64,000 nt of DNA, taken from Anaerolineales bacterium. GTDB lineage: Bacteria > Chloroflexota > Anaerolineae > Anaerolineales > UBA11858. Below the pieces are notes generated by a model, which saw only the letters and a list, made by a program, of their open reading frames with translations, searched no databases and had not been told where the DNA came from. Positions 2-20,690 of the stretch are shown here, one piece after another (within the stretch, counting starts at the first letter, position 1; each line of letters starts with the position of its first letter). A program made the position numbers and the translations under genes. The stretch is from assembly GCA_049644605.1 (NCBI GenBank), contig JBARSF010000005.1, positions 538 to 64,537 of the forward strand. Reading direction: 5' to 3'.

Positions 2-496
2 CGCCCCAGGAACAATTTTTATGGACCGCGAGAGAGTATTATTCCTAAGATCAATGAATTTAATTGGTATCGCGAGCAGTCGAAAGACCGGATCATCATT
101 GATAAAGGAGAAGCGAGTGTGCTTAATGATGTAAAACTATATTTTGATAAGACCTATTATCTGGATGGGGAAGAATTGAATCATTGCGAACACATCGGGG
201 ATATTCTCTTTTCCCAGGAATATTTGGGAAATCATCCTTGGATGCCGGAGGGTTTAGGTGTCAACAAAAGAGCTCCGGGTCCATTTGAAACCAGCCCGGG
301 TGCGGTTTATGAGATTGAACGGAGTATGGCAACAATTGCGAGGGTGATGACCCAGATGCGCTATCAGCTCTTGGTTGATTCTGAGATTGATTATAGCCAT
401 CTGATTGAGGTGGAACGGCCTATCTGGCAGAAAGTCCTCGACCGTTATGGGGTTGCCTTCCCGAATTACCTGCAGGGAAAAAAGGCGGAACAATGA
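2..496 (+). CDS. Small lipoprotein-family protein, 5'-truncated by the window edge (paralogue of 5224-6024 and 7976-8731)
   Basis: The frame is open from base 2, with no stop before the listed Met at 119. The C-terminus ERPIWQKVLDRYGVAFPNYLQ aligns with ETPIWQFMRNHYGEPL and EDPFWLYVHNRYGVELPSWLQ of the two paralogues. Its stop overlaps the next gene's start (ATGA at 493-496). Confidence 0.6.
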   Translation, partial: RPRNNFYGPRESIIPKINEFNWYREQSKDRIIIDKGEASVLNDVKLYFDKTYYLDGEELNHCEHIGDILFSQEYLGNHPWMPEGLGVNKRAPGPFETSPGAVYEIERSMATIARVMTQMRYQLLVDSEIDYSHLIEVERPIWQKVLDRYGVAFPNYLQGKKAEQ

Positions 497-5183: not shown

Positions 5184-5223
5184 GACTAATCTGAATTTGG
5201 ATAAAATACACAAGGAGAGAAGA

Positions 5224-6024
5224 ATGAAACGTTGGATGGGACTATCTTTACTCCTTATTTTCCTGTTGAGTGCCTGCGGTCCTTCCGAAGCGGACATACA
5301 AGCCACCGGTACGCAGGTGGCGGCTGAATTGTACGGCACACAGACTGCGCTGGCGCCCACTATCACGCCGACGATAACGCCCACACCAACGGAAACACTC
5401 ACACCGACACCTACATTCACACTTACAAACACTCCGCACCCGCCGACTGCCACCCTGACGGAAGCTGGCGTAGAGAAGCTGATGCTTTGCTACAAGGCGG
5501 CCGTGAGCCTCCAGGCCGATTGGGAGGTGCATCTCTTGATCTCTGGAAGAATGGGTTGGGAGTGGTACAACCCGGATAATGAATGGAAAAGCATAGATAA
5601 AATATCTCAGGAGCTGAATGCTTTCTGGTGGGAGCGCAGCCACCGAGCAGGTGGAATCAAGATTAAGTGGGTTAATTTAATAAATGTAACAGACAAAAGC
5701 CACGGTAATATTACCCTTATAGTGGATGGCGTGGAACTGCAGGAGTATAGGTGGGAACGCTCGGATTGTGATCAATATCTCAAAGAAATCTGGCTCTCCG
5801 ACACCAAACTCCTAATAGATCCTTGGGGGGGGGGTATGAAACGGATAAGCGAAGTCTCTTTCGCCTACAAGACTATCAATCAGGTTGTGAAGAAGATGCG
5901 CACAGAACTGCTGGAGATCTACGGCATCGATCCAGCCGAACTGGAAGCCATCGAAACCCCCATTTGGCAGTTCATGAGAAACCACTACGGCGAACCGCTC
6001 AGTAAAAATCGGTTTTGGGAATAG
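5224..6024 (+). CDS. Small lipoprotein, cassette copy B (unknown function)
   Basis: AAGGAGAG RBS before the ATG at 5224. Lipobox MKRWMGLSLLLIFLLSAC, then GTQTALAPTITPTITPTPTETLTPTP linker. EAGVEKLMLCYKAAVSLQADW is shared with copy C. The track ORF begins earlier, at 5197. The gene contains a G10 tract at 5825-5834. Confidence 0.7.
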   Translation: MKRWMGLSLLLIFLLSACGPSEADIQATGTQVAAELYGTQTALAPTITPTITPTPTETLTPTPTFTLTNTPHPPTATLTEAGVEKLMLCYKAAVSLQADWEVHLLISGRMGWEWYNPDNEWKSIDKISQELNAFWWERSHRAGGIKIKWVNLINVTDKSHGNITLIVDGVELQEYRWERSDCDQYLKEIWLSDTKLLIDPWGGGMKRISEVSFAYKTINQVVKKMRTELLEIYGIDPAELEAIETPIWQFMRNHYGEPLSKNRFWE

Positions 6025-6035
6025 AGGACAAAACT

Positions 6036-7742
6036 ATGAAGTTAAAACTAACTACATACCTGATGCTCGGGATCGCCTTCCTTGCCAGCGGCTGTGGCCC
6101 CAGCGAAAGTGAGCAGATCGCCACCATTACCCAGATTGCAGCCGGCATCATCGCCACGCAGACTGCCAATGCGCCTACCGCCACGCCCACCCCTACGTTG
6201 AGCCCCGGTGACACACGCACCTCACCGGTCGACGGCATGACCATGGTTTACATACCCCCGGGGGAGTATACACTTGGCTCGACCGAGGAGGATGTGGAAT
6301 GGGCGGTAGAGCAGTGCGGAAGAGCCAACAGCAGTTCCGAATATTCCTGGGATGACGAATGTGATACTGCTGAATTCCAGGACGAGATGCCCCAGCATAC
6401 TGTGCGGTTAGATCCATATTGGATTGACCAAACCGAGGTTACCGTGGCGATGTTCGCTCAATTTGTGGATGAGACAGGATACAAGACGGTAGCGGAGCGG
6501 TTTCAGTATAAGGATCTTACTTACACTGACAAATGGCGGTTTGAGAGAAACGCCGATTGGTCGAATCCATTTGGGCTTGAATCCGCTACCGAGGACTTGA
6601 AGGAGAACCCTGTCGTTAATGTCAGTTGGCAAGATGCCTGGACTTACTGTGAGTGGGCCGGTCGCAGGCTGCCAACCGAGGCTGAGTGGGAGGCCGCAGC
6701 CCGCGGGATGGATCTACGGATCTTTCCCTGGGGGGACGAGAGTCCACTAAATAATCATGCCAATTTGACTGATGACAGGAGTATTGTATTGGGACTCTCC
6801 AGCTCGTACAGCGATGGATATATGTGGATTTCCCCGGTGATGAGCTTCCCGGAGGGCGCCAGCCCCTTCGGTGTCTTGGGCATGGCCGGAAACGTCAAGG
6901 AATGGGTTTACGATTGGTACTCACCAGTGTATGATCTACCACCCCTTGCGGAGAACCCGATCAATACAACCGAAACCGAAATGCGCGTACGACGCAGCGG
7001 CAGCTTTGACACCTATCTCTCAGACATCCGCACAGCTAGCCGGGCGGGGAGCAGTCCGTACTGGACTGCCAGCGACTTGGGTTTCCGCTGTGTGTTATCG
7101 GAACTGGAATTACCAGATCCCCCGGAGCAAGACAGCTCCCCGCCTGACGCTGCGTTCGGGGATTGGAGAACGGTAGTATATGATAGCGTGGACATACATC
7201 AGTATGGGTATCTGAAAAGCTTTAGCGACCTGGAGATTCTAGGACAGTACTCCCAGTGCGAACACCTTAAAATCTCCACGCCGGATTACCCGGAAGGCTG
7301 GCTGCACGCAAAGGATGATGTTACCCTCTACAAGGATTGTTCGGATTTCGAGGAGATATTCATTCGACCTGCTTCTAAGAACTGGTATCACTATCCAAAG
7401 GGATTCGGGGTCCTTACCGTGAAGAACCAGGGAGAGAGCGATGCCTACCTCGTCCTGGTGGACATTGATAATGAGGAGAGTTACGAGATTTATGTGCGGG
7501 CTGGTGAGCAGGTGATCATGGAGGATATCCTCGATGGCACATATGAGGTTTACACAACCAGCGGCACTACCTGGGTTTCCTATGATAAGCGTTTCAAGGA
7601 TGCCGTAAGCTATGAGAAGCTTACAGAGCCAATGGTATTCACATCCACCGAAACCCAAGCGACCTGGTGGGAAATCGTTCTTCAAACTGTGGAAGGCGGA
7701 AATACTGGTAGTATCCCCATTAATGAAAGCGACTTTCCATGA
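6036..7742 (+). CDS. Lipoprotein with non-catalytic FGE/SUMF1-like domain, copy B
   Basis: AGAGGA RBS before the ATG at 6036 (the track ORF starts at 6015). Lipobox MKLKLTTYLMLGIAFLASGC. Same motif set as copy A: YWIDQTEVTVAMF, RLPTEAEWEAAARG, GNVKEWVYDWY, LGFRCV. C-terminal tail GNTGSIPINESDFP. Confidence 0.85.
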   Translation: MKLKLTTYLMLGIAFLASGCGPSESEQIATITQIAAGIIATQTANAPTATPTPTLSPGDTRTSPVDGMTMVYIPPGEYTLGSTEEDVEWAVEQCGRANSSSEYSWDDECDTAEFQDEMPQHTVRLDPYWIDQTEVTVAMFAQFVDETGYKTVAERFQYKDLTYTDKWRFERNADWSNPFGLESATEDLKENPVVNVSWQDAWTYCEWAGRRLPTEAEWEAAARGMDLRIFPWGDESPLNNHANLTDDRSIVLGLSSSYSDGYMWISPVMSFPEGASPFGVLGMAGNVKEWVYDWYSPVYDLPPLAENPINTTETEMRVRRSGSFDTYLSDIRTASRAGSSPYWTASDLGFRCVLSELELPDPPEQDSSPPDAAFGDWRTVVYDSVDIHQYGYLKSFSDLEILGQYSQCEHLKISTPDYPEGWLHAKDDVTLYKDCSDFEEIFIRPASKNWYHYPKGFGVLTVKNQGESDAYLVLVDIDNEESYEIYVRAGEQVIMEDILDGTYEVYTTSGTTWVSYDKRFKDAVSYEKLTEPMVFTSTETQATWWEIVLQTVEGGNTGSIPINESDFP

Positions 7743-7975
7743 TCATCACATAAGACTCAGAATGGTGATGATAGTTTTATGTCAACCCAAGAAAATAAAT
7801 TGAGTAAATAGCAGCTTATTCCACTATGACCATCAGTTCTCTAGTTTTAACTTAGATAATATAAAGATCAGTGCTTGAAGACATGGGGTGCAGTAAGTTT
7901 CTCACCCCTTGTTCGAGATATTGCCCTTGAGTAAATGAGTCAGATATGTTTCATAGATTTAGATTGGAGAGCTCA

Positions 7976-8731
7976 ATGAAAAGATGGATCATCCTTGTTT
8001 TTGTGCTGTTATTCATGTTGAGTGCTTGCGGACCCTCAGAAGCAGATATGCATGCCACTGTCACGCAGGTGGCGGCTGAGCTGTACGGTACGCAAACCGC
8101 ATTGGCGCCTACTGCTACTTCTACAAGCACACCATCAATCACACCAACGCCATCGGAAACACCAACGCCAACAATGATACCAACCATTACGAACACTCCG
8201 CTCCCACCAACCGCCACCCTGAGGGAGGCTGGTGTGGAGAAGCTGCTGTTGTGCTACAAGGCTGCTGTGAGCGTCCAGGCAGATTGGGCGGTGCATAGCT
8301 TGATCTTCTTCAAAGTTCACAGCTACTCTGATAAAAAGTATCAAGAGCTGAATGCTTTTCTCTGGGAGCGCAGTCACAGATCAGGTGGTATCAGGATCTT
8401 TGATAAAAATCCGTTCCCTTTGGGTAACGATACGCTGGTGGTGGATGGTGTGCAAATAGAGAGCCAAGTTTATGGACGCGAGGATTGTGATCCTTATTTA
8501 GGCACAATCATTGGTTCGGCCGGGGGCTTGCGTAATGGTCCCTGGGGTGTAGGGGCAGGCTCGCGGATCAGCCATTCTCGCTCGATTATTAATACTGCTG
8601 TGAGTAAAATGCGAAAAGAGTTACATGAGGTGTACGGGATCTACAACGTCGTATTGGATGGCATTGAGGATCCCTTCTGGTTGTATGTTCACAATCGCTA
8701 CGGTGTCGAACTTCCGAGCTGGTTGCAGTAG
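7976..8731 (+). CDS. Small lipoprotein, cassette copy C
   Basis: GGAGAG RBS before the ATG at 7976 (the track ORF starts at 7946). Lipobox MKRWIILVFVLLFMLSAC. It is collinear with copy B through the Thr/Pro linker, EAGVEKLLLCYKAAVSVQADW, and the C-terminal EDPFWLYVHNRYG. Confidence 0.7.
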   Translation: MKRWIILVFVLLFMLSACGPSEADMHATVTQVAAELYGTQTALAPTATSTSTPSITPTPSETPTPTMIPTITNTPLPPTATLREAGVEKLLLCYKAAVSVQADWAVHSLIFFKVHSYSDKKYQELNAFLWERSHRSGGIRIFDKNPFPLGNDTLVVDGVQIESQVYGREDCDPYLGTIIGSAGGLRNGPWGVGAGSRISHSRSIINTAVSKMRKELHEVYGIYNVVLDGIEDPFWLYVHNRYGVELPSWLQ

Positions 8732-8745
8732 AAAAGGATGTCCCT

Positions 8746-10458
8746 ATGAAAAGGAAATTATCATTGATCATGATCATGATCGGGATCGCGATGCTGTTTT
8801 TAGGATGTGGTCCGAATGAGTCCGAACAAATTGCCACTATCACCCAGATCGCTGCCGGAATCCTCGCTACCCAGACCGCCCAGGCGCCAACCATCACTCC
8901 AACTCCCTCTTTTGGGCCTGGGGACACAAGTGTCTCCCCTGTGGATGGAATGGTAATGCATTATATCCCGGGCGGTGAGTACATTCTAGGTTCCACGCAG
9001 GAAGATGTGGATTGGGCCGGAGAAGCATGTGTTCAGTTCAGTGAATATTGTAGTTCAAGTTCCTTCGAACATGAAATGCCTCAGCATAGTGTCCAGCTTG
9101 ATCCATACTGGATTGATCAGGTTGAGGTCACAATGGCTATGTTTACCAGGTTCATAGAGGAGACCGGTTATGAGACAGAAGCGGAGCGTATTCAGTATTC
9201 GTTTGTCAATGAAACTGGAACTTTTAAAGTCGTTCAGGACGCCGATTGGGAAAATCCATTTGGACCGGATTTTGAGCCCAAGGAGGAGGATCCAGTAGTG
9301 CATGTTAGCTGGTACGATGCCTGGGCATACTGCGCGTGGGCTGGACGCAGACTGCCTACTGAGGCCGAATGGGAGGCGGCTGCTCGTGGCACGGACCTGC
9401 GCCGTTTCCCATGGGGAGATACGCTTCCGGGAGACACACTCGCAAATCTAGCTGATATTAATTTAGATTCTTCCCGTATAAAAAACGAGGATGTGGATGA
9501 CGGTTTTCAAACAGTTAGCCCAGTGATGAGTTACCCCGAGGGCGCCAGCCCGTTTGGTGTCTTGGATATGGGAGGTAATGCCGCAGAATGGGTCTATGAT
9601 TGGTATACCCCTATGTATGATCTCCCTTCACCGGCTGTGAACCCGGTTAATACTACAGAAGTGGAAGTACGTGTGGTTCGAGGTGGCAGCTATAATAGTA
9701 TGCTCACTGCCGCCCGCACCTCAAGCAGAGGTGGGTCCAACCCTTATACGAGTACCAGCTATACCGGATTCCGCTGTGTGTCCTCAGACTTGGAACTACC
9801 TGACCCGCCTGACCGGGATATCACTCTGCCCGACCTGGCGCTTCTTGTGACAAAATCCGTCCTGGACCCCGAAGGACTAGAAATCCAAGGTTCTATATCG
9901 AGCGCCGATGATCTGAAAATCACCGGGCAATACAACCAGTGTTCACGCATAAAAATTTCCACTCCCGAGTTCTCGGAAGGATGGATAGATACGTGGAAGG
10001 TTGTGCTTTACAAGGATTGTTCTGAGCTGGAGGAGTATTTCTTGCGTCTCAGTTCTGGAACTTGGAAAGGAAGATATGAGCGCGGCGATGGGCGAGGTGC
10101 CCTGACGATTTCGAACCAAGGAAATATGGATGCGATGGTTGTGTTGAGCCGAGTTGAGCCAGAACGCGACCCTGATCTGGACGACAGTTTTTATGATTCC
10201 TGGATTTATATTCGATCGGGCGAACAAGCAACTATCGAGTACCTTCCTGATGGTCAATACGAGGTGTTCATCACCACAGGTACCACCTGGGTTCCATACG
10301 AAAAGCGATTCCAGCAGGCAGCCAGTTATGAGAAGCTTGAGGACTTCCTGGAGATCACTTCCACAGCTAGTACCTATTCGATTTGGGAGCTTACATTGGA
10401 GACTTCAGAAGGAGAAGCCGGCAGCATTCCAGTCAATGAGAGCGATTTTCCTCAATGA
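8746..10458 (+). CDS. Lipoprotein with non-catalytic FGE/SUMF1-like domain, copy C
   Basis: Lipobox MKRKLSLIMIMIGIAMLFLGC. Motifs YWIDQVEVTMAMF, RLPTEAEWEAAARG, GNAAEWVYDWY, VRGGSY, TGFRCV. C-terminal tail EGEAGSIPVNESDFPQ is nearly identical to that of copy A. Confidence 0.85.
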   Translation: MKRKLSLIMIMIGIAMLFLGCGPNESEQIATITQIAAGILATQTAQAPTITPTPSFGPGDTSVSPVDGMVMHYIPGGEYILGSTQEDVDWAGEACVQFSEYCSSSSFEHEMPQHSVQLDPYWIDQVEVTMAMFTRFIEETGYETEAERIQYSFVNETGTFKVVQDADWENPFGPDFEPKEEDPVVHVSWYDAWAYCAWAGRRLPTEAEWEAAARGTDLRRFPWGDTLPGDTLANLADINLDSSRIKNEDVDDGFQTVSPVMSYPEGASPFGVLDMGGNAAEWVYDWYTPMYDLPSPAVNPVNTTEVEVRVVRGGSYNSMLTAARTSSRGGSNPYTSTSYTGFRCVSSDLELPDPPDRDITLPDLALLVTKSVLDPEGLEIQGSISSADDLKITGQYNQCSRIKISTPEFSEGWIDTWKVVLYKDCSELEEYFLRLSSGTWKGRYERGDGRGALTISNQGNMDAMVVLSRVEPERDPDLDDSFYDSWIYIRSGEQATIEYLPDGQYEVFITTGTTWVPYEKRFQQAASYEKLEDFLEITSTASTYSIWELTLETSEGEAGSIPVNESDFPQ

Positions 10459-10579
10459 TGGAATTTCAGGCGTTTACTCGCTACCAGGAAATATGGTCCA
10501 CCTGGAGAGTATCCAAACTCAATAATGGGATTGTTCTGACCAGCAATAATGCCCGCAGTTTACGGGGCTAATTACCCTC

Positions 10580-12349
10580 TTATTGTCTTTCGATCTGAAA
10601 TCCTGCCCTAGCCAATAATCGAGGGAGATCGCGGATATATACTTTGTTTTTTTCCTTTTCGCTAGGCGGTAGCTCCTCCCAGGGGATCAGATTCGGATTA
10701 GTCTTTTGATCAGAGTCTTTTTTTGATCCATAACGCCAGCCTTCAGCTTTTTTCTCCCGGCACCAGGACTCATGCTCCAGCTTTGCCATGCGGGTGACCT
10801 CATCGTCCTGATTGTCCCCCTTTTCGCTGAATACAAAATTCTCTGCATCCCAATCCCGCAAGGGTGCGATCCGGTACCCTGCTGAATTTAACATCACCGG
10901 TATTCTATCAGCCTGGCGGCGGTTCTTTTCTTTGATATATTCCGACAGATTATCCCAGGGGACAAGAACCTCGCTGGGCTGTTGAGCAATTCCAGAAAGG
11001 TTGATCCCTTCCAGGTAGACCCCATGAAGATTGCGGGCCAGGACCTCATGGGTGCCCTTCTCGAGGATCTCGGCGGTGCAGGTCTGGTCAAGTAAATCAA
11101 AGATCCGTAGATTCCCGAAAGACTTCTGGGCACCTGGATCCTCGCCCAGCAGAAGCCCCAGTCCTCCACTTTCAATCATTCGCAGGATAATCGGAATCTG
11201 ATAATTTCGGAGTTGGTGGTTGAGTCTAAGCCCGGTTTGCAAACTGAATCCTTCATCATCCAGGCAGACATACACAAAATCTAGCGGGAAGGTATTGTCT
11301 TGATTAAAAAGGGATCCAATTCGTTCAAAATCCCCCGACAGGATATTCATGTTTACCGCATTAAATTCACACAATTCCTCAAGTTGTGGGGTTTGAATTT
11401 GGAGGGATTCCAGGATTTGTTCCGCGTTCAGGTCGATGATGGATATGTGTATCTTTCTCTTGGGATCCGGGTTGTGAATTCTCCACCCACGGGCAGCTTC
11501 CACAACTAACCGTTGTCCCATTTTACCCAAACCAACCACCAGTATGTGGGGTTGTTGATTGGTTGGTTCCCTCATCCAGGGAGGACTTTCTTGCAGCATC
11601 AGCCGGGCACCCCGGTCAAAGATATTAAACAGCTCCAACCGGAAATGCGCATTGTTGTTTGTATGCAGTTCTTTTTCCCGCAAAAGTTCCCAGAGCTGGG
11701 AATCAAAAATATGGATGATACAGGTCAAGGTACCGCCCTTTCTTGAGCGGGATAGTTTTTCAGCCTGCACAGCCACTTCTGCGTTTTTTCCATCGTCCCC
11801 TAATACCGAGATCAGGCATTTGGCCCGGTGAAGCTTAACTTTTTCCAGCAAATCTGGATCCACGGCATCTCCATGGATAACTATGGCTCCTGCCGAACGG
11901 GCATTTTCAATCCAATCGTTTCCTTCGTCCATTTCTATCACTACGACAGGATTTCCACCCTGGAGAAATTGTGTCGTGAGACGGAATCCCTTTCTGCCCA
12001 GCCCACAGATAATGATCTGATCCCGGATAAACCACAGCCGGATCCGGTCCGTTTGCTGGATAAAGAGGGAAGTAAAAGCCAAAAAGGCAGTATAAGCGGT
12101 AACGGCCGGGACTAAAAATCGAGCGATTTGCAGTTCCCAGCTGACAGGAGGGGGTACAGCGCCAGAATTCATGGAAATTAATCCCAACGTCAGGTAAAGA
12201 TTGTCCAGGAAAGTCCGTTCCCCTCCTGCAACCAAGCCGTTTTTCCAGAAACCAATAAATCCCAGAATCAGGGAAGATAAACCAAGAGTCAGGATAATGA
12301 ACCAGCTGTAATCAGACCAAATACTCCGTAAATATTTTCCCCTGCTCAT
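10580..12349 (-). CDS. 2TM pore-loop channel-like membrane protein with two RCK/TrkA-N-type Rossmann domains and two C-terminal RyR repeats
   Basis: TM1 is WFIILTLGLSSLILGFIGFW, followed by a pore-helix/filter-like LDNLYLTLGLISMNSG and then TM2 LQIARFLVPAVTAYTAFLAFTSLFI. GxGxxG motifs IIICGLGRKG and VVGLGKMGQ are present. RyR-type repeats are VPWDNLSEYIKEKNRRQADRIPVMLNSAGYRI and EHESWCREKKAEGWRYG...IPWEELPPSEKEKNKVYIRDLPRLLARAGFQI. Confidence 0.8.
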   Translation of the reverse strand: MSRGKYLRSIWSDYSWFIILTLGLSSLILGFIGFWKNGLVAGGERTFLDNLYLTLGLISMNSGAVPPPVSWELQIARFLVPAVTAYTAFLAFTSLFIQQTDRIRLWFIRDQIIICGLGRKGFRLTTQFLQGGNPVVVIEMDEGNDWIENARSAGAIVIHGDAVDPDLLEKVKLHRAKCLISVLGDDGKNAEVAVQAEKLSRSRKGGTLTCIIHIFDSQLWELLREKELHTNNNAHFRLELFNIFDRGARLMLQESPPWMREPTNQQPHILVVGLGKMGQRLVVEAARGWRIHNPDPKRKIHISIIDLNAEQILESLQIQTPQLEELCEFNAVNMNILSGDFERIGSLFNQDNTFPLDFVYVCLDDEGFSLQTGLRLNHQLRNYQIPIILRMIESGGLGLLLGEDPGAQKSFGNLRIFDLLDQTCTAEILEKGTHEVLARNLHGVYLEGINLSGIAQQPSEVLVPWDNLSEYIKEKNRRQADRIPVMLNSAGYRIAPLRDWDAENFVFSEKGDNQDDEVTRMAKLEHESWCREKKAEGWRYGSKKDSDQKTNPNLIPWEELPPSEKEKNKVYIRDLPRLLARAGFQIERQ

Positions 12350-12431
12350 ATCTCTCTCCAGTGATCCTTTGTGATTACGGTTTCCATCCTGAAATCAAAA
12401 CCACGCTATTTGATTAGCAAGAAATCAATGG

Positions 12432-12992
12432 TTAATCCGGAAAATTTTCGTAGAATACCTTTCCTTGATCTTCCCCAAGAGTGGTGGGCTCTTCCGTACC
12501 CGGTACCCGGTTGCCGGCCATGATCCAGGCCAGTGGCAGGCCAATCAGGCGTGCTGCAGCAGCAATCTCACCTGTCCCCCCAACCCCCTGGGCTTCCCGA
12601 CCATCCCACACCACCAGGATGACAGCACTATGTTCCAGTACGTATGTCCCAACAGCGGCATATGCATCCTCACGGGTTGGGGAAGGAGGTATGGTGAATA
12701 CCTGATCCGCTTGTGACACCAGCGCCTGGAATTCTTTTTTAGATTCTGGGGATTTGAATTCTGATGAATAAACATCTTGAGGAACGGGCAGCGGCACAAT
12801 TAGTTGAGCTCCGGGTCTTTTAAGCACACGTTGCGCTGCCAGGCGATCGGCTCCCTCCGCCAGGGAAGAGATCACCTGGAATGAGGGGTCTCCAAAAATC
12901 CTCTCAATGTGGGTGAGAGCCTGATCAATCCCTGCGGTGAGTTTATCCACCTCGGACAGGAAACGGTGACCGGAGACACCAATGGTAAGCAT
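12432..12992 (-). CDS. SLOG-superfamily-like small protein (YpsA/DUF1273-, LOG-, DprA-like Rossmannoid)
   Basis: Motifs GVSGHR (N-terminal), SLAEGADRLAAQ and GVGGTGEIAAAA are arranged as in SLOG proteins; compare DprA in this window, SGLARGIDGIAHQ...ERSGALITA. The start lies 3 nt after the upstream stop, suggesting translational coupling. Fold assignment rests on motifs only. Confidence 0.6.
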   Translation of the reverse strand: MLTIGVSGHRFLSEVDKLTAGIDQALTHIERIFGDPSFQVISSLAEGADRLAAQRVLKRPGAQLIVPLPVPQDVYSSEFKSPESKKEFQALVSQADQVFTIPPSPTREDAYAAVGTYVLEHSAVILVVWDGREAQGVGGTGEIAAAARLIGLPLAWIMAGNRVPGTEEPTTLGEDQGKVFYENFPD

Positions 12993-12995
12993 CGT

Positions 12996-15659
12996 TCAGG
13001 AATCCTTACCTTCATCATTCAAATCAGCTACTGTATATCCAATCTCAGTCAGCAGCCGGGGTATTGCCCGCACCAGGTCTCGGTCTTTATCCTTTTCAGC
13101 TTCAGGAAGATCTTCCCAGGGAATTAGTGCAGAATGCTGTTTCATAGATTTATTTGTTTCAGGAGCATATTTCCAACCGGCTTTGAGTTTGGAATTCATC
13201 CAGCGTTCATGCTCCATTATTGAGAGGCGTTCCAGGTCATCCTCTCCCTTGGGAAACTCCGCCGGCTCGTTGCTGCGGGCTGGAAGCATCACATACCCAA
13301 TCCGACCCAACTTGTGGGGAATATCACGAACTGCAGACCTGTTCTGTTCCTTTTCATCCTCTGGTAAATCTTCCCAGGGAAGAAGAGCACTGTGGGTTTT
13401 CCCATCATCGTTGGTGATTGGTCCGTATTTATATCCTTTCTCTTCCATTTTCTGGCAGAAGATTTGATGGTGGATGCTGGCCAATTTTTCCAACAGCTCT
13501 CCTTCTAAATTTACCTGCTGGACCAGGGCCAGGAATTCCTGCCCATTAACATGCAGGTCCAGCTGGCTTTCCGAAGGTAGACTGGAGCGGGAAAACCGGG
13601 TTTTGCTGGAAAGTTGGCTCATGGTTAAAATAGTTTCTATGGAGCGAACTCCGTGTTTGTAGTTACTTATATGCAGGAAAGCCCGCAGAACACCTTGATC
13701 GATATTTAATTTATTGTCTTGGAATAGATCGGGTTGATTAAGAAGCAGAATGGACCGCAGCAGGATCGCCCGCCGGATTATGGTATGGGGATCGTCCTCC
13801 CCCTGTTGCGGATTGGGACCGAGCACATTAACGTAGCCTTTTAACCGGCTAACAAAATCAGGCACTTTAGCAGCCCGGGCTTCTTCAGTGCTCAAACCTT
13901 TTCCAAAATCAGCCATTGTATGGCTGGTGCCGCCGGCAAAAACAAAGATTGAGCGCCCAATAGGATGAGTGATTTGTTCTTCCCGGAAGGCGCCGTCCTG
14001 CATGGGAGCCAGGAAGTAGCGCAACCATCCCAGGGTTTTATCACCTAAAGAGGTGTCAAACTCATCCCAGAATACCAGGGGAATTTTCCCATCAAGATTT
14101 ACATCCCTTACCTGATGGAGAGCATCCGGCAGCTCATCGATCGTATTCATCTGGGAGAGGTTAAATTCCAGTTTTTCGATCTTGCCGGGCGCAAGCGATT
14201 TTGCCACTTGCGTGATACCAAACGATTTCCCTGATCCAGGCGCCCCAAAAACCCCAATGGAAAGTGGGCGTTTTGGGCGATCCTGTTGGAGGTATTCATC
14301 CACCAAGGTGCAGATGGCCCGAAAACTTTCGATCTCCTGGCGATCCACAGTAACCAGATGACCAAATTTTCCAAAAGGAACATCGGGCAGAGCTGTTTCT
14401 ATGCCTTCCAGCACAGTTTGTTCCGCCACCTGGTCGAGATCATGCTGGTGCCGGTCATGTAAAATGGTCCAAAATTTACTTTGCTGAGTTTGACCAGCCT
14501 GTACCAGAGAGCGGACCGGATCTTGAACTTTGACATCAGCTAGAGGTTTTGCTGTTCCCGTTAACACCCTGGCGATATTTTGTATTGGAAAACGAACAGC
14601 GAATTTTTCACCGGGAGCTGGTTCTCCTTCATAACCATTCAGGTGAAGCTGGCGCAGGGCAGAGAAACCCGTTTGTATGCCTAGCGGGATGTCCGGATGG
14701 TCTTCTGAGATCATCAATTGATAAACCAGACCGGCAGTTAAACAGCTGGTATAGCCGATCATGCCCCCAGGATGATTTTGAATCCAGGTGCCTTCGATGG
14801 CCTCTGGGTCGAAGAATAATCGGCATTGGGTTGCCAGAGGAGAGGGCTGATTTTCCCCACTTGGATCTGGCCGGGAAAGCAGGGCTGCGCCCTCTGTGTA
14901 AAAAGAAAGCACCACATAGGCGCAGCGCGCTAGGCTATTCACGCGGGGATTGTGGACCAGTTCCCAGGCGACATCCTGAGCGGTTCGTTCCCAGGACAGT
15001 CCTTGGCTGATTTGGACTTCTGTCAGCCGCAGATCGTTGGCCGTAAGTATAACCACTAAACGATCTGCATGGTTTTTGAGGAGGTGATCCCAGAGGGGGC
15101 CCTGGGCAATGGGGCTGGCCATTTTAACCACAATCCAGGGAGTCTTCCCTGTTGCGGTCAGCGCTTTGGGCCAAAGAGCGGGCTGATCACGGAATCCCAA
15201 ATTTGCATCATCAAGGACGATTAAATCTGCTTCTAGGGGTTCATCCGCTATTTGGGAGGAAAGTGTATCCCCTGCTGGTAAATTACTGCTGCCTCCCAGA
15301 TCCAAGCCTAAAAAGTTTTCCACCCGCCAGGCTTTTCCGGTTGGGGATTTATATAAAGACCATAAAGAGTAAGAGTGATGGAATTGAGGATCACTTGGAA
15401 ATATTTGATCTGGGAAAGGAGTAGAGCTTAGAATCTTATGTCTGGCTTGAGTATCAGCAGCCTTGATTTGAGCAACTGCTTCGATTAAATCCGCTATTAG
15501 TGCTGCACCACCCCGCTGCGAATACGCTCGGGTCCAAGAGTTGGGATTCCAGGTCTGCGGAGCTCCATCACTGGATTGCCCTATATGGGCGATGTTCCAG
15601 TCGATGGTGATATCACCGGAAATTAATATAGTCCGGGGAGAAGAGGATTTTGAGGTCAT
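12996..15659 (-). CDS. Degenerate PfkB/ribokinase-like N-domain - AAA+ ATPase - tandem RyR repeats
   Basis: The N-terminal ~340 aa carries ILISGDITIDW, RGGAALIADLI, ADLIVLDD, RLVVILTANDLRL and HPGGMIGYTSCLTAG, which follow ribokinase-like order but lack the GAGD catalytic signature. Walker A is GAPGSGKS (nt 14223-14246), Walker B is PLVFWDEFD, and sensor-1-like is FVFAGGT. Two RyR repeats occupy nt 12999-13496: KMEEKGYKYG...LLPWEDLPEDEKEQNRSAVRDIPHKLGRIGY and EHERWMNSKLKAGWKYA...LIPWEDLPEAEKDKDRDLVRAIPRLLTEIGY. Confidence 0.8.
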   Translation of the reverse strand: MTSKSSSPRTILISGDITIDWNIAHIGQSSDGAPQTWNPNSWTRAYSQRGGAALIADLIEAVAQIKAADTQARHKILSSTPFPDQIFPSDPQFHHSYSLWSLYKSPTGKAWRVENFLGLDLGGSSNLPAGDTLSSQIADEPLEADLIVLDDANLGFRDQPALWPKALTATGKTPWIVVKMASPIAQGPLWDHLLKNHADRLVVILTANDLRLTEVQISQGLSWERTAQDVAWELVHNPRVNSLARCAYVVLSFYTEGAALLSRPDPSGENQPSPLATQCRLFFDPEAIEGTWIQNHPGGMIGYTSCLTAGLVYQLMISEDHPDIPLGIQTGFSALRQLHLNGYEGEPAPGEKFAVRFPIQNIARVLTGTAKPLADVKVQDPVRSLVQAGQTQQSKFWTILHDRHQHDLDQVAEQTVLEGIETALPDVPFGKFGHLVTVDRQEIESFRAICTLVDEYLQQDRPKRPLSIGVFGAPGSGKSFGITQVAKSLAPGKIEKLEFNLSQMNTIDELPDALHQVRDVNLDGKIPLVFWDEFDTSLGDKTLGWLRYFLAPMQDGAFREEQITHPIGRSIFVFAGGTSHTMADFGKGLSTEEARAAKVPDFVSRLKGYVNVLGPNPQQGEDDPHTIIRRAILLRSILLLNQPDLFQDNKLNIDQGVLRAFLHISNYKHGVRSIETILTMSQLSSKTRFSRSSLPSESQLDLHVNGQEFLALVQQVNLEGELLEKLASIHHQIFCQKMEEKGYKYGPITNDDGKTHSALLPWEDLPEDEKEQNRSAVRDIPHKLGRIGYVMLPARSNEPAEFPKGEDDLERLSIMEHERWMNSKLKAGWKYAPETNKSMKQHSALIPWEDLPEAEKDKDRDLVRAIPRLLTEIGYTVADLNDEGKDS

Positions 15660-15847: not shown

Positions 15848-18169
15848 ATGAAATATATGTCTGCAGAGAATGTCAGCACCCAGGATTTTGATATCTTTGT
15901 CAGCTATTCCTCGCAGGATAAGTCCATAGCGGATGCAGTAGTTGCCGCCCATGAACAGGCCGGGATCCGCTGCTGGTATGCACCGCGTGATATCGCGCCG
16001 GGCGCAGATTGGGCAGATTCCATCACCAAGGCCATTCATGATTGTTCCATCATGGTGCTGATTTTTTCAAAAGAAGCCAATCGTTCCCAGCGGGTGATCG
16101 ATGAGGTCAATTATGCTATCAGCCAGGAAAAACCCCTGCTCCCTTTCCGGATTGAATCCTCAAATCCCACCGGTGCACTCAGCCTTCATTTATCTTCCCG
16201 GCACTGGTTGGATGCTTATGATCCCGGCTGGGAAGATCATATTGAGAGGCTGGTAAAGAGCGTAACGATAAATCTGGAAGATGCCGATGAGACGATCCAG
16301 ATCAGTGGGGGAGAAGCCGATTCCATTGTTGGGGAAAGAGCACAGAAGCAGCTGAAAAAACAAAAATCCTTCAAGAACCTTGGTTATCTTGCAGGAGGTT
16401 TGATAGTCGTTTCCCTTTTGGGGTATTTCGGGTGGAAGTATTTTGGAGAGGGAAAACTTGGGCTGGATCCTAGAAATTCCACAATCACACTGGAAGAATC
16501 TACACCAACCGAATCTTTGCCAGAACCAACTGAGATAGAAGAGACCAGCGAGGTGGTGCCCCCAGAAATACCTTCTTATACTGCGGTTCTGCATGGTTCA
16601 ATTGAAGAACAGGGGTTTTCGCTTGATCCCCAGAAGGAAAATACAGGTGATTTGGCACTGAATTTGTTTCTCACTTTGACAGCATATGATTATGAAAACG
16701 CGGCCGTGGTTCCGCGAGCAGCAGAAAGCTGGACAGTCAGTCCGGATGGGCGCATCTATACTTTTAAGTTACGGGCAGAGATCCCCTGGGTAATCCATGC
16801 TCTGGAAGGAGATACGGTTCAAATTACTGACGAAGATGGCAGCCCCCGATATGTGTCCGCCGCTGATTTTGAATATGCCTATAAAAGGTTGTGTGATCCC
16901 GCTATCGAAGATTTCCGTCTGCGACCCACGAACATTCAAGGGTGTAGTGATGTTTTGGAATATACAGATCCTGAGAATATTCCCCCGGAACTATTTGATG
17001 AGATTGGTGTGGAAGCAATATCAGATACAGAATTGATTTTTACTCTTGAAGAACCATCCGGCTATTTCCTGACCACAACATCTAATTTGTCTTTCTCAGC
17101 CGTGCCTGCCTGGGCATTAGAAAAATATAGTGAAGCCTGGACAAATCCTGGGCTGATGCCCACCAATGGAGTTTTTGTGATTGATGAGTGGGTTCCCGGG
17201 GAAAGGATCCGCTTGGTTCGCAATGAGCTCTTACCGATCGAAGTGCAGGGGGAGGGTAATATCAAAACGGTTGAGCTGATGATGTTAAATGACACCGAAG
17301 CTTATGAAATGTGGGGAACAGGTCAGATTGATTACGCATCCATCCCTGAAGAGTACCTTGCAAACCATCTTATCCAGAATTCAGATCAAACCAATCAAGC
17401 ATTGGATCAAATTGTTTATTATTTGATATTCAACTTGGATCAACCACCATTTGATAATATTCACCTCCGGCGGGCATTCTCCGCGGCTTTAAATAGAACT
17501 TATTTTGTCAACGATATCCTCCAGGAGGGAGGACTCCCAATGAACCATTTAGCGCCTCCTGGTGTGTTTGGCGCCCCGCCGGTGGACGAAGTAGGCGTTG
17601 GTTACGCCCTGAAGTATGCCCGGGCTGAATTAGAACTTGCCGGGTACCCCCAATGCCTGGATTTGCCAATGATTGATTTTACTGCTTTTTCCACCTCAAT
17701 AGATAAAAATGCTGATAAGATTGCACGTTCCTGGGAAGAAGGATTGGATTGCCCTGAGGGAACCATAAATTATCTAGGAAATGTCTTTGGTGATAATGGC
17801 TATCAGAGTGAGTGGGATATATTAGGGGCTGGTTGGAGAAGTGATTACCCTGATGAAGAAAACTGGGTAGGACCAGTTCTATATTGTGACAATAAAAGGT
17901 TTGTAGAACGAAGTTGTAATGAAATTGATGAGCTGATAGTTCAAGCCAGGGAGGAAATTAATGCTTCTAAACGCATTGAACTATACCGTCAAATTGAGGA
18001 ATCTTTTTTTGGTTATGAAGGAACTTTTCCGATTGCACCCCTTTATACACCATTCTTTTATACAGCCAGTTACGATTGGGTTGAGTATACCCAAGCCGGT
18101 TTTTGGATTGATGATTATTCAAAATATTGGATTGATATAGATGCCAAAGAGGCTGCACGGGGGGAGTGA
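15848..18169 (+). CDS. TIR domain - single TM helix - family-5 solute-binding (peptide/nickel SBP-like) domain protein, copy 1
   Basis: TIR motifs FDIFVSYSSQDK, IRCWYAPRDIAPGADW and IMVLIFSKEANRSQRVIDEVNYA. TM helix LGYLAGGLIVVSLLGYFGW is preceded by KKQK. SBP_5-like motifs follow: LFLTLTAYDYENAAVVPRAAESWTVSPDGRIYTFKLRAEIPW and ERIRLVRNE. No ABC permease or ATPase genes lie nearby. Confidence 0.85.
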   Translation: MKYMSAENVSTQDFDIFVSYSSQDKSIADAVVAAHEQAGIRCWYAPRDIAPGADWADSITKAIHDCSIMVLIFSKEANRSQRVIDEVNYAISQEKPLLPFRIESSNPTGALSLHLSSRHWLDAYDPGWEDHIERLVKSVTINLEDADETIQISGGEADSIVGERAQKQLKKQKSFKNLGYLAGGLIVVSLLGYFGWKYFGEGKLGLDPRNSTITLEESTPTESLPEPTEIEETSEVVPPEIPSYTAVLHGSIEEQGFSLDPQKENTGDLALNLFLTLTAYDYENAAVVPRAAESWTVSPDGRIYTFKLRAEIPWVIHALEGDTVQITDEDGSPRYVSAADFEYAYKRLCDPAIEDFRLRPTNIQGCSDVLEYTDPENIPPELFDEIGVEAISDTELIFTLEEPSGYFLTTTSNLSFSAVPAWALEKYSEAWTNPGLMPTNGVFVIDEWVPGERIRLVRNELLPIEVQGEGNIKTVELMMLNDTEAYEMWGTGQIDYASIPEEYLANHLIQNSDQTNQALDQIVYYLIFNLDQPPFDNIHLRRAFSAALNRTYFVNDILQEGGLPMNHLAPPGVFGAPPVDEVGVGYALKYARAELELAGYPQCLDLPMIDFTAFSTSIDKNADKIARSWEEGLDCPEGTINYLGNVFGDNGYQSEWDILGAGWRSDYPDEENWVGPVLYCDNKRFVERSCNEIDELIVQAREEINASKRIELYRQIEESFFGYEGTFPIAPLYTPFFYTASYDWVEYTQAGFWIDDYSKYWIDIDAKEAARGE

Positions 18170-18371: not shown

Positions 18372-20690
18372 ATGAAACCTGAGGATCGCACTCCCCCCAA
18401 CTTTGATATTTTTGTCAGTTATTCCTCACAGGATAAGTTCATAGCAGATGCAGTAGTAGCCGCCCATGAACAGGTTGGGATCCGCTGCTGGTATACACCG
18501 CGTGATATCGCGCCTGGTGCTGACTGGGCAGACTCGATTACCCAGGCCATTCATGATTGTAAGATTATGGTGTTGATTTTCTCAAAGGAAGCTAATCGCT
18601 CCCAGCGAGTAATTGATGAGGTCAATTATGCCATCAGCCAGGAAAAACCCCTGCTTCCCTTCCGGATCGAACCTTCCAATCCCACTGGCGCCCTCAGCCT
18701 GCATTTATCTTCCCGGCACTGGTTGGATGCTTATGATACTGGCTGGGAAGCCCATATTAAGAGGCTGGTCAAGAGTGTTAAGACCAATCTGGAAAATGCC
18801 ACAGATACGATCCAGATCAGCGGAGGAGAAGCGCCTTCCATTGTAGGGGGAAGGGTCGCAAAACAAGCGAAAAGACAGGTCTCCCTCAAGACGCTTGGTT
18901 ACGTTGCAGGAGGATTGATAGTTGTTTCTTTGTTAGGATTTTTCGGCTGGAATTATCTGGGAAAAGGTAAACCAGAGCTAGCCCCTGAAATTACCTCCCC
19001 CTCACCAGTAGAATCTACTCCAACTGCATATCTTCCTGAACCAATTGAATCGCAAGAGACCAGCGATATAAATCCCGCAGAAGTATCTTCTCATAATGCA
19101 GTTCTTCATCTAGCTATCAAAGAGCAAAATCTTGTAATTGATCCTCTGATAGCAGGCATCCAATTTGTACCGTTTACACAAAGCTTATTTCTCACTTTAA
19201 CAGGATTCGATTATGAAAACGAGACTGTCTATCCGTATATAGCACAGAACTGGACCATCAGCCCGGATAGGCGTATATATACTTTTACGTTGAGACCAGA
19301 TATCCCCTGGGTAACCCATGCTCTCGGTGGAGAAACAGTTCAGGTTATTGATGAAGAAGGATATCCTCGTTTTCTAACAGCTTCTGATTTTGCGTATGCC
19401 TTTAAACGGTTGTGTGATCCCGGTTTCGATAACATCGATCTACGTCCCACAAATATTATAGGTTGCAGCGAAGTTCTGGAATATGCAAACCCGGGAAACA
19501 TCCCCCCGGAATTATTCGATGAAATTCGAGTGGAGGCAGTTTCAGATACAGAATTGGTGTTTTATCTTGAAGAACCTTCCGCTTATTTCTTGACCGATAC
19601 AGCTAATATTTCCTCCTCAGCTGTGCCTGGCTGGGCCATAGAAGAATATGGTGACTCCTGGACAAACCCGGAACTGATAGCTACTCATGGAGCTTTTGTG
19701 ATTGATGATTGGGTTCCCGGAGAGTCAATCCGCCTGGTTCGGAACGAACTCTTTCCGGTTGATATGCAAGGTGTCGGAAATATCCAAACAGTGGAGATGG
19801 TGTTGGAAGGCAGTGCCTATGACTTGTGGTTAAATAACGAGGTAGATATCGCGCAAGTCCCTGCCCCCGAAACTGGGTCTTTCCTGAAGCAGTTTCCAGC
19901 TCAAGCTCTCCCAGAGCTTGGTGATGTTCATCACTTTATGATTTTTAACAGCACTGAGTTCCCATTTGATAAACTTCACCTTCGACGTGCTTTTTCAGCT
20001 GGGTTAAACCGATCCTATTTGGTTAGAGATGTCTTCCAGGGAGGGTGGATGCCCATGATACACCTGGCGCCCCCGGGCACATTTGGCGCTCCACCGTTGA
20101 ATGAAGTGGGTGTTGGAGATGACCAGGAATTCGCCCGGTCAGAGTTAGAACTTGCAGGGTATCCAGAATGCCAGGGTCTGCCAATTATCAATTTCCTCAG
20201 TGCATCCGGATTCATGCTCGATATATCCGCGGAGGAAATTGCACGCTCCTGGGAGAAGACCCTGGGATGCCCTGAAGGGACGATAGAATACAAAGGGAAT
20301 ATATTGAGGGACGATAGTCTAAGTTCAAACGGGTGGGATATCCTGAGTATTGGGTGGATGGGTGAATACCCAGATCAAGAAGCCTGGGTAGGGGCAATCC
20401 TCTACTGCGACTCCGAATCCTGGATTAATGAGTTAATAAATCGAAGCTGCACCGAAGTTGATCAACTTATTATTCAGGCCAGGGAAGAAATTAGCCAATC
20501 TGACCGGATTCAACAATACCGTCAAATTGAGGAGTATTTTTTCGGTTATGAAGGGACCTTTCCAATTGCACCGATGTTTGCTCCAACGATATATACTGCA
20601 AAATCTCATTGGTTCGATGATAGTCAAGGCGGGAATATTTCCGATTGGATCATTGACATGGATGTCAAGCAGGCAGTGCTGGGCGAGTGA
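18372..20690 (+). CDS. TIR domain - single TM helix - family-5 solute-binding domain protein, copy 2
   Basis: Collinear paralogue of 15848-18169. By eye, the TIR part is about 90% identical at protein level with many synonymous DNA differences. The SBP part is clearly more diverged. Confidence 0.85.
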   Translation: MKPEDRTPPNFDIFVSYSSQDKFIADAVVAAHEQVGIRCWYTPRDIAPGADWADSITQAIHDCKIMVLIFSKEANRSQRVIDEVNYAISQEKPLLPFRIEPSNPTGALSLHLSSRHWLDAYDTGWEAHIKRLVKSVKTNLENATDTIQISGGEAPSIVGGRVAKQAKRQVSLKTLGYVAGGLIVVSLLGFFGWNYLGKGKPELAPEITSPSPVESTPTAYLPEPIESQETSDINPAEVSSHNAVLHLAIKEQNLVIDPLIAGIQFVPFTQSLFLTLTGFDYENETVYPYIAQNWTISPDRRIYTFTLRPDIPWVTHALGGETVQVIDEEGYPRFLTASDFAYAFKRLCDPGFDNIDLRPTNIIGCSEVLEYANPGNIPPELFDEIRVEAVSDTELVFYLEEPSAYFLTDTANISSSAVPGWAIEEYGDSWTNPELIATHGAFVIDDWVPGESIRLVRNELFPVDMQGVGNIQTVEMVLEGSAYDLWLNNEVDIAQVPAPETGSFLKQFPAQALPELGDVHHFMIFNSTEFPFDKLHLRRAFSAGLNRSYLVRDVFQGGWMPMIHLAPPGTFGAPPLNEVGVGDDQEFARSELELAGYPECQGLPIINFLSASGFMLDISAEEIARSWEKTLGCPEGTIEYKGNILRDDSLSSNGWDILSIGWMGEYPDQEAWVGAILYCDSESWINELINRSCTEVDQLIIQAREEISQSDRIQQYRQIEEYFFGYEGTFPIAPMFAPTIYTAKSHWFDDSQGGNISDWIIDMDVKQAVLGE

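Follow-up and report, generated by a model that had tools for sequence, protein, structure and literature searches.

Why should one bacterial operon encode two different proteins, one ATPase-like and the other channel-like, that both end in a tandem pair of ryanodine receptor (RyR) repeats? The operon in question consists of three genes, here called A, B and C, in a 64,000-nt stretch of an Anaerolineales bacterium genome (assembly GCA_049644605.1, contig JBARSF010000005.1, forward-strand positions 538-64,537); this whole stretch is referred to as the window. A preliminary description had answered with a heteromeric ATPase-channel machine. Its observation is confirmed, and its interpretation finds support in part: A, B and C are indeed linked, but A and C are not obligate partners, and TIR genes adjacent to the operon had been overlooked. 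These TIR genes beside A shift the reading from such a machine to a conflict system under the control of a nucleotide signal. We consider it somewhat likely that A, B and C are part of a widespread, undescribed Thoeris-like signalling system built on TIR enzymes, in which the RyR pairs, along with the SLOG-fold protein B, sense an ADP-ribose (ADPR)-type signal and C serves as a depolarising effector.

RyR repeats and TIR genes of the locus

The Pfam RyR profile (PF02026) matches A (85.2 bits, E=3.9e-24) and C (69.8 bits, E=2.4e-19) in two stretches each, above the curated cut-off of 27.4 bits, and Repeat12 chains of ryanodine receptors in the PDB match these repeats with E-values down to 2e-22; the tandem pairs are thus as described before. 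A sequence motif had been said to be shared by three of the four repeats. It holds overall, but A repeat 1 reads HHQIF and GYKYG where H..W and GW.Y were stated, and in C repeat 2 the stretch given as EK..R is EKEKNK. The fourth, C repeat 1, had been called degenerate; it is shortened, yet the His, aromatic and Asn residues that do not vary in the family are all in place. The RyR pairs of A and of C form clearly separate sub-clades, scoring ~100 bits across the two hidden Markov models (HMMs) and ~260 bits against their own.

In an AlphaFold2 (AF2) model of A (overall pLDDT 71.5, with the first ~380 residues and the RyR pair well modelled), Foldseek matches the C-terminus to the closed Repeat12 of 6uhi (E=1.5e-9, TMt 0.65) and also to human RyR3 Repeat12 bound to ADP or dantrolene. 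By this comparison the tandem pair of A makes a closed, self-contained, pseudo-two-fold helical domain of the Repeat12 type. Single-repeat RyR proteins of phages and Bacteroides form the same domain by homodimerising (PMC13232231), so the classical dimer interface would already be satisfied within each of our proteins.

The view that the bacterial function of RyR repeats is unknown, held in the preliminary description, has been overtaken by two 2026 preprints, in which phage RyR domains bind or cleave TIR-made isomers of cyclic ADP-ribose (cADPR) (PMC13232231; 10.64898/2026.06.04.730250). RyDEP, i.e. gp78 of mycobacteriophage DyoEdafos (PDB 35TM), is a homodimeric RyR/Repeat12-type glycosidase cleaving 2'cADPR and 3'cADPR; six of eight tested phage homologues bind 2'/3'cADPR, and the two measured are nanomolar sponges (PMC13232231). 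RyR Tad, a non-catalytic sponge, binds 3'cADPR with a dissociation constant of 43 nM, and also 2'cADPR and cADPR, using the Asp equivalent to that of RyDEP for binding (10.64898/2026.06.04.730250). Our own search of phage genomes with an RyR repeat found many phage RyR proteins; DyoEdafos was not among the matches listed.

We took the gp78 sequence from the accession in the RyDEP paper and mapped its pocket positions H75, W78, H100 and D117 by register. Three of the four window repeats align with gp78 ungapped from H75 to D117, and C repeat 1 needs an eight-residue gap. The residues found at the four positions are H/F/H/N in A repeat 1, H/W/H/D in A repeat 2, H/Y/S/N in C repeat 1 (the S being D in most relatives) and H/W/N/N in C repeat 2. 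Across the families, none of the four repeats departs from His at the H75 equivalent, and the W78 equivalent is always aromatic; position 100 varies outside A repeat 2, the only repeat with all four RyDEP residues. At position 117, A repeat 1 and C repeat 1 have Asn; A repeat 2 has Asp there, both in close relatives (40 of 41) and across phyla (37 of 38). In C repeat 2 it is Asn in the clade of the window, and Asp in 10 of 27 distant cross-phylum C proteins. A clean split, with Asp in A repeat 2 marking an enzyme and Asn in the channel marking a sensor, is weakened by these distant C proteins as well as by the binding Asp of RyR Tad. The pattern of conservation, including that of the supposedly degenerate C repeat 1, is compatible with a ligand pocket.

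Divergent from A lies a gene for a receptor-like protein with a TIR_2 domain, one transmembrane (TM) segment and an SBP_bac_5 (SBP5) domain, followed by a paralogue (Table 1). The two share 85% nucleotide identity over the TIR part and 72-74% over the extracellular SBP part, and this faster divergence of the ectodomains hints at an extracellular trigger. The same arrangement recurs in another Chloroflexota genome (L006; L numbers are our locus identifiers), whose B is 63% identical and whose divergent TIR-SBP5 gene, at the same position, is 72% identical; at two further loci (L008 and L010) the TIR-TM part is kept with a different ectodomain.

For a wider view we gathered 80 species loci from GTDB genomes, anchored on B and scored with custom HMMs per domain, and 59 metagenome loci anchored on C, for which counts are restricted to loci with enough flank. 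A TIR domain is found in 40 of the 80 B-anchored loci, and its density falls with distance: it is 0.46-0.97 per 10 kb in the 4 kb nearest to B and zero at 8-10 kb (rate ratio for within 4 kb vs 4-10 kb 4.2, binomial p=7e-6). Nine of the 12 C-anchored metagenome loci whose flanks are complete contain a TIR domain, and all four A- or C-anchored contexts chosen blind to TIR have an adjacent TIR gene. The placement of the TIR genes is fixed: they diverge from A, immediately follow C or B, or immediately precede a fusion of B with a SLATT pore domain. By Pfam, the linked proteins are TIR-WD40, TIR-nSTAND1-WD40, NB-ARC-TIR, TIR-lectin and TIR-FGE-sulfatase, and at least 90% of 56 linked TIR domains share the Glu that aligns with the usual catalytic residue of TIR domains.

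Table 1. Features of the operon and its surroundings, in window coordinates
Feature	Position	Strand	Basis or remark
Gene A, 887-aa open reading frame (ORF): ribokinase/PfkB-like, P-loop (AAA+/STAND-like) ATPase, tandem RyR pair	12996..15659	-	
A, N-terminal ribokinase/PfkB-like fold (residues 1 to ~430)	14370..15659	-	Foldseek; no sequence-level PfkB match
A, P-loop ATPase domain, Walker A GAPGSGKS, Walker B VFWDEFD	13515..14369	-	motifs; sub-threshold Pfam
A, RyR repeats 1 and 2	12999..13514	-	Pfam; Foldseek to 6uhi
Gene B, 186-aa ORF: stand-alone SLOG-fold protein	12432..12992	-	
Gene C, 589-aa ORF: two TM segments, two Rossmann/RCK modules, tandem RyR pair	10580..12349	-	
C, membrane part, two hydrophobic segments	12035..12346	-	hydropathy and conservation
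C, two Rossmann/RCK modules, GLGRKG...E139 and GLGKMG...D306	11030..12034	-	TrkA_N and motifs
C, RyR repeats 1 (shortened) and 2	10583..11029	-	Pfam
Terminator-like hairpin directly past the C stop	10552..10566	-	consensus match only
TIR_2, one TM, SBP_bac_5 receptor-like protein	15848..18169	+	Pfam; divergent from A; candidate signal producer
Second, paralogous TIR-TM-SBP_bac_5 gene	18372..20690	+	Pfam
Third TIR gene, TIR-WD40, 985 aa	2226..5183		type flanking A/B/C systems in other genomes
FGE-sulfatase-domain lipoprotein, first paralogue	493..2178		
FGE-sulfatase-domain lipoprotein, second paralogue	6015..7742		
FGE-sulfatase-domain lipoprotein, third paralogue	8746..10458		
Paralogous lipoproteins, 261-275 aa, first	5197..6024		no Pfam match
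Paralogous lipoproteins, 261-275 aa, second	7946..8731		no Pfam match
Dynamin-family GTPase, 575 aa	51315..53042		in housekeeping part

The gene order and the two short gaps given in the preliminary description agree with both the ORFs and the sequence itself. The TGA stop of A is followed by ACG and then by the ATG of B, a gap of 3 nt; the 82 nt between the TAA stop of B and the ATG of C carry GGAGAG at their end, before the start codon. A promoter and terminator scan found no terminator-like hairpin in either intergenic gap and was otherwise uninformative.

The TIR genes and the FGE-sulfatase genes of the window make up an island of ~20 kb of conflict or sensor type, with housekeeping genes from ~21 kb onward. 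Two of the three FGE-sulfatase genes are each preceded by one of the small lipoprotein paralogues, and hence look like a tandemly duplicated two-gene module. The gene beside C at a related locus (L087) encodes a fusion of FGE-sulfatase and TIR domains. The dynamin-family gene farther along is unrelated to the A-B-C system.

Protein families of the operon

In C, two hydrophobic segments enclose a highly conserved stretch, FLDNLYLTLGLISxNSG, with the loop LGLISxNSG and no TVGYG filter. The label previously given to C, two TM segments followed by two RCK modules, stands: TrkA_N matches the first module at residues 112-202 (E=1.4e-20), and the second is recognised by its motif GLGKMG...D306 and weak NAD_binding matches only. 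The GxGxxG glycines and the acidic residue of both Rossmann modules are invariant across the family. When the C family is aligned by hhalign with MthK, the RCK part alone aligns; RCK begins equally far past the second TM segment in both proteins, C residue 98 aligning with MthK residue 99. C is predicted to be a membrane effector, and its architecture suggests a channel-like one.

The N-terminal ~400 residues of A have a ribokinase-like alpha/beta fold with a beta-lid, judging from the AF2 model (blocks mostly at pLDDT 75-93, the ATPase domain only at 30-70) and from Foldseek matches to 3ie7, 2f02, 7c1x, HldA, ketohexokinase and ribokinase (E=1e-8 to 1e-7, TMt 0.45-0.61); the PfkB-family matches include phosphofructokinase-2/LacC and pseudouridine kinase. 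The fold thus bears out the label PfkB-like used before, but Pfam PfkB (PF00294) has no match in 41 A-family members at E<=0.1. Residues D20, G50-G51, D150-D151, D284 and E289 are invariant in this domain, and so the GG dipeptide and the N-terminal Asp are kept; the GAGD of the canonical DTxGAGD motif is not evident, and the invariant D284-P...E289 might stand in its place. Lacking both a PfkB profile match and an evident GAGD, A is a putative kinase. As regards the earlier label AAA+, the Walker A and B motifs are there, but the Pfam matches are sub-threshold, namely AAA in window A (16.5 bits, cut-off 21.2) and in 39 of the 41 members (up to 8.9e-6), and nSTAND_NTPase5 in 36 of the 41. The A profile finds 2,630 representatives of 50%-identity clusters at E<=1e-30; among the 150 best of them, 21 have no RyR pair.

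B gave nothing to sequence searches, and its identity came from fold search alone. Window B has no match in Pfam, NCBIfam or PADLOC and no hit to curated SLOG families, a profile search of the PDB with the B family found nothing, and a PDB sequence match to phosphoglycerate kinase was judged spurious. The AF2 model, built from 45 relatives, has a pLDDT of 95, and its best fold match is YpsA (Foldseek, E=2e-7, TM-score 0.63-0.66), followed by DprA, ShosA, TM1055, Moco carrier protein, LOG and the TRPM4 N-terminal domain; the ThsA SLOG domain bound to 3'cADPR is also among the matches. Pfam YAcAr (best E=2.2e-4) and DprA match 12 and nine of the 45 relatives, all sub-threshold, and the conserved motifs are GxxGHR, LAEGADR and WDG...GGTG. 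On the strength of this model we assign B to the SLOG superfamily by fold, outside every curated SLOG family; the earlier SLOG-like label was right at that level.

Linkage, exchange of partners and a candidate signalling route

A, B and C are large families, found mostly in Anaerolineae and other Chloroflexota and spread over many phyla; relatives of B occur in at least 585 species. The genes are not scattered, as they might have been: colinear A-B-C is seen in 12 of the 80 B-anchored loci and a complete A-B-C in seven of 19 C-anchored loci. The trio is, all the same, one among several architectures. In the B-anchored set, A adjoins B in 41 loci, C is present in 26 and neither A nor C in 27. 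A is seen without C in 27 loci out of 43, and C is also found without A. In the metagenome set, the gene immediately upstream of C is B at 16 of 40 loci. Fusions of A with B were found in five loci and in eight of the 150 best A-family representatives, and one fusion of C with B; in Actinomycetota there are many B-SLATT fusions, downstream of TIR-WD40 or TIR-nSTAND1 genes. B is accordingly the hub of the system, adjoining A or fused to A, to C or to SLATT pore domains. The gene after A-B can be SLATT, NurA, an RNase H-like gene or a metallophosphatase instead of C, and such swapping of effectors is typical of conflict systems.

Several loci differ in their surroundings. In some, toxin-antitoxin and restriction-modification genes are among the neighbours; an Acidobacteriota locus (L001:4361-7942) has A, B and an RNase H-like gene immediately after a toxin-antitoxin pair of the RelE/MqsA type, with genes for a ThiF (E1-like) protein and a large WD40 protein nearby. 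Cultured carriers include Intrasporangium oryzae, Humibacillus xanthopallidus and Nocardioides sp. URHA0020, and also Clostridium estertheticum and Methylobacterium sp. FF17, where A stands alone on plasmids (pCF009-b, L091, and pA, L092, respectively). On pA it adjoins a very large SIR2-family gene.

These data bear on a rival explanation, ordinary ion homeostasis. On this view C would be an RCK-regulated cation channel whose RyR pair and Rossmann sites respond to adenine nucleotides or NAD(H), i.e. to the energy state of the cell; metabolic regulation would fall to A and B, and the TIR genes would be neighbours by chance. ATP, ADP or NADH are the classical ligands of TrkA_N/RCK domains, and C has retained its two Rossmann motifs; human RyR3 Repeat12 with ADP or AMP-PCP (9l9b, 9l91) is among the fold matches, and some A genes do sit amid ordinary signalling and metabolic genes. 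We nevertheless find this explanation improbable. Housekeeping channels would hardly show so patchy a distribution, over about ten phyla and including plasmids, which is consistent with horizontal transfer, nor replacement by nuclease and pore effectors. The B-SLATT fusions beside TIR genes and the distance-dependent TIR enrichment also speak against it, as do the missing K+ selectivity filter in C and the lack of a link to Trk, Ktr or Kdp genes in any locus read.

A stronger rival takes the RyR pairs as homotypic adaptors, similar to the effector-associated domains (EADs) of Kaur et al. 2020, that couple the ATPase or another RyR-tagged partner with the channel; ATP hydrolysis by A would gate or assemble C, and B would be a small-molecule sensor. 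This comes close to the idea of the preliminary description, whose theme of one module on two proteins of an operon is indeed conserved. A second gene with a C-terminal RyR pair lies beside C in 16 of 21 C-anchored loci (A-type in eight of them and not in the other eight), and in 12 of 20 B-anchored loci with C; pairs of A and C without B exist (L089, L134), and SLOG directly follows the RyR pair in both A-B and C-B fusions. The homodimerisation of single-repeat RyR proteins likewise favours an adaptor. Set against this, the tandem repeats already close the two-fold domain within one chain, the pairs of A and C belong to different sub-clades, and the ligand-contacting residues are under strong constraint. 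Nor is a partner always at hand: C is the only RyR protein of the locus in several cases (L007, L015, L025, L004, L129, L133, L138), A is solitary on the plasmids, and some of the best A-family representatives have no pair at all. We therefore regard the adaptor as unlikely by itself, though as the strongest of the rivals, and it could coexist with sensing, e.g. through ligand-induced assembly.

Some further RyR proteins were noticed: (i) At L087:5111-6919, directly upstream of C, lies a third class of RyR-pair protein of 602 aa, with an unrelated N-terminal domain of ~430 aa that has no Pfam match, and with a C-terminal RyR pair; TIR genes flank it on both sides. (ii) The same class is found at L095, L096, L103 and L127, which together with L087 represent a clade without A and B. 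(iii) L088:12721-14338 carries an nSTAND1/NACHT-like NTPase of 331 aa and, after it, a small RyR-domain protein of 209 aa; a complete A-B-C-TIR-TIR cluster lies a few kb upstream.

Returning to the Thoeris-like reading, its steps may be pictured as follows. Sensor-fused TIR proteins, here the two membrane TIR-SBP5 receptors and elsewhere TIR-WD40, TIR-NACHT, TIR-lectin or TIR-FGE-sulfatase proteins, would, once triggered, convert NAD+ to a signal derived from ADP-ribose. The signal would be read by the SLOG protein B and by the C-terminal tandem RyR domains of A and C. Ligand on the RyR pair, possibly with sensing of NAD or ATP at the two RCK Rossmann sites, would open C, and the membrane potential would collapse, leading to growth arrest or abortive infection. 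A would be a second signal-controlled module, made of the ribokinase-like domain and the ATPase; because its repeat 2 alone keeps the complete His/Asp pair of RyDEP, A may also process or clear the signal.

We can put this more specifically, and with clearly less confidence. As a tentative proposal, C would be a bacterial cation channel gated through its Repeat12-type RyR domain by a TIR-made cyclic ADP-ribose isomer, and hence an early, prokaryotic example for the long-debated idea that cADPR opens ryanodine receptors; A would be an effector or processing enzyme under control of the signal, combining an RyR glycosidase site with the ribokinase-like and ATPase domains. Together with SLOG these would form a multi-receptor Thoeris-like system, whose SBP5-TIR receptors perhaps answer extracellular cues and not phage alone.

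The TIR proteins could also be plain NADases. Many bacterial TIR domains consume NAD+, and the Rossmann/RCK sites of C, with dinucleotide-binding motifs invariant in both modules, would then detect the fall of NAD+ (or a rise of ADPR) and open the channel, while the task of B and of the RyR pairs would be to buffer by-products or break them down. The RyDEP-type His/Asp pair in A repeat 2 suits a degrading role. This account of NAD+ depletion leaves unexplained the systems made of TIR and B-SLATT, those made of A and B without C, and the RyR pairs on effectors of unrelated types; we give it little credence, and like ion homeostasis it is less likely than the adaptor.

Beyond the frequent second RyR-pair gene beside C, several points weigh against the Thoeris-like reading. 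Half of the B-anchored loci have no TIR within the available sequence, and genomes of the Anaerolineae type are TIR-rich in general. PADLOC has no model matching A, B or C, and its matches to the TIR proteins are at the domain level only. The H..W motif is common to the whole RyR family and maybe partly structural, which makes it moderate evidence for ligand binding. Ion_trans_2 has no match in 32 C members at E<=1, leaving the pore identity of C without profile support; as the TVGYG filter is missing as well, the word channel is drawn from architecture. The extracellular SBP5 sensors suggest a trigger other than phage. Ligand, channel activity and phage protection are, for all members of the A, B and C families, predictions.

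If RyR pairs do receive TIR-derived nucleotides, the RyR repeat would be a signalling module of host bacteria too, beyond phages, and would be the fourth sensor fold of nucleotide-based immunity after SLOG, Macro and SAVED/CARF; phage-borne RyR sponges would thereby be explained. C would offer a small, tractable bacterial channel in which to study how ligand binding at Repeat12 is coupled to gating, a matter still debated for the animal receptor of 2 MDa, whose regulation by cADPR is disputed. The A family, some 2,600 clusters at 50% identity, would represent a novel type of effector or processing protein. The finding is of high interest because RyR repeats encoded by the host are linked here with TIR enzymes and with a protein resembling an ion channel.

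Comparison with known systems

Thoeris, in its types I-XI, couples a TIR protein, ThsB, to an effector activated by its signal, e.g. the SIR2-SLOG protein ThsA, a Macro-TM protein or the ion channel of type X. The loci described here are like Thoeris in their adjacent TIR genes, their SLOG-fold protein, their membrane or pore effectors, and the swapping of effectors between related systems. They differ in that the TIRs are large sensor fusions of the TIR_2 type, as opposed to the small ThsB, and in having up to three candidate receptor modules and a ribokinase-like ATPase that lacks a Thoeris counterpart; they also have no PADLOC match, and their defence role is a matter of inference. According to a recent TIR survey from the Sorek lab, there are 29 putative Thoeris types, including 'SLOG and 4TM' candidates, and type X has an ion-channel effector with an unknown signal (10.64898/2025.12.03.692087). 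Those 'SLOG and 4TM' candidates probably correspond to our B-SLATT fusions. The terms RyR, PF02026, TrkA and AAA do not occur in the survey's text or in the supplementary files searched, one of which was incomplete (10.64898/2025.12.03.692087), and our literature search found no paper describing this RyR/SLOG/TIR system.

With RyDEP and RyR Tad of phages, the window proteins share PF02026, the pocket positions (His, Trp, His, Asp/Asn) and the two-fold four-helix domain. The phage proteins are single-repeat homodimers that sequester or cleave host signals, whereas in the window a host-encoded tandem pair sits on effector-type proteins, with Asn in place of Asp117 in three of the four repeats. 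It is this fusion of a host-encoded pair to effector-type proteins that suggests a receptor role.

The SLOG-SLATT and EAD-coupled systems (Burroughs et al. 2015; Kaur et al. 2020, PMC7159879) show the same syntax of TIR, WD40, NACHT and FGE-sulfatase sensors; they also have SLATT pores and one small domain repeated on two proteins of an operon, and are likewise enriched in filamentous or multicellular lineages. The difference is that the A, B and C families have no curated model, and the paper of Kaur et al. (PMC7159879) makes no mention of ryanodine, TrkA or ribokinase.

As for channels, MthK and the TrkA-KtrA type of RCK-regulated K+ channels and transporters resemble C in having two TM segments followed at once by RCK, with the Rossmann GxGxxG and acidic residue intact. 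C differs from them by lacking the TVGYG filter and an Ion_trans_2 match, by combining two RCK-like modules and an RyR pair in one chain, and by a genomic context of a conflict system, not of K+ uptake. Eukaryotic ryanodine receptors, too, carry a tandem RyR pair on a cation-channel protein, and the fold matches of our repeats include their Repeat12 (6uhi, 9l9b). Human Repeat12 binds the adenine nucleotides ATP and ADP, and cADPR has long been proposed as a modulator of the receptor. C, in contrast, is small, with two TM segments and RCK modules unrelated to the six-TM RyR pore; its RyR pair is C-terminal, and the homology does not extend beyond the repeats. In all, TIR-based nucleotide signalling is known; what this locus adds, unless C is related to the type X channel, is a receptor module and two effector architectures not described before.

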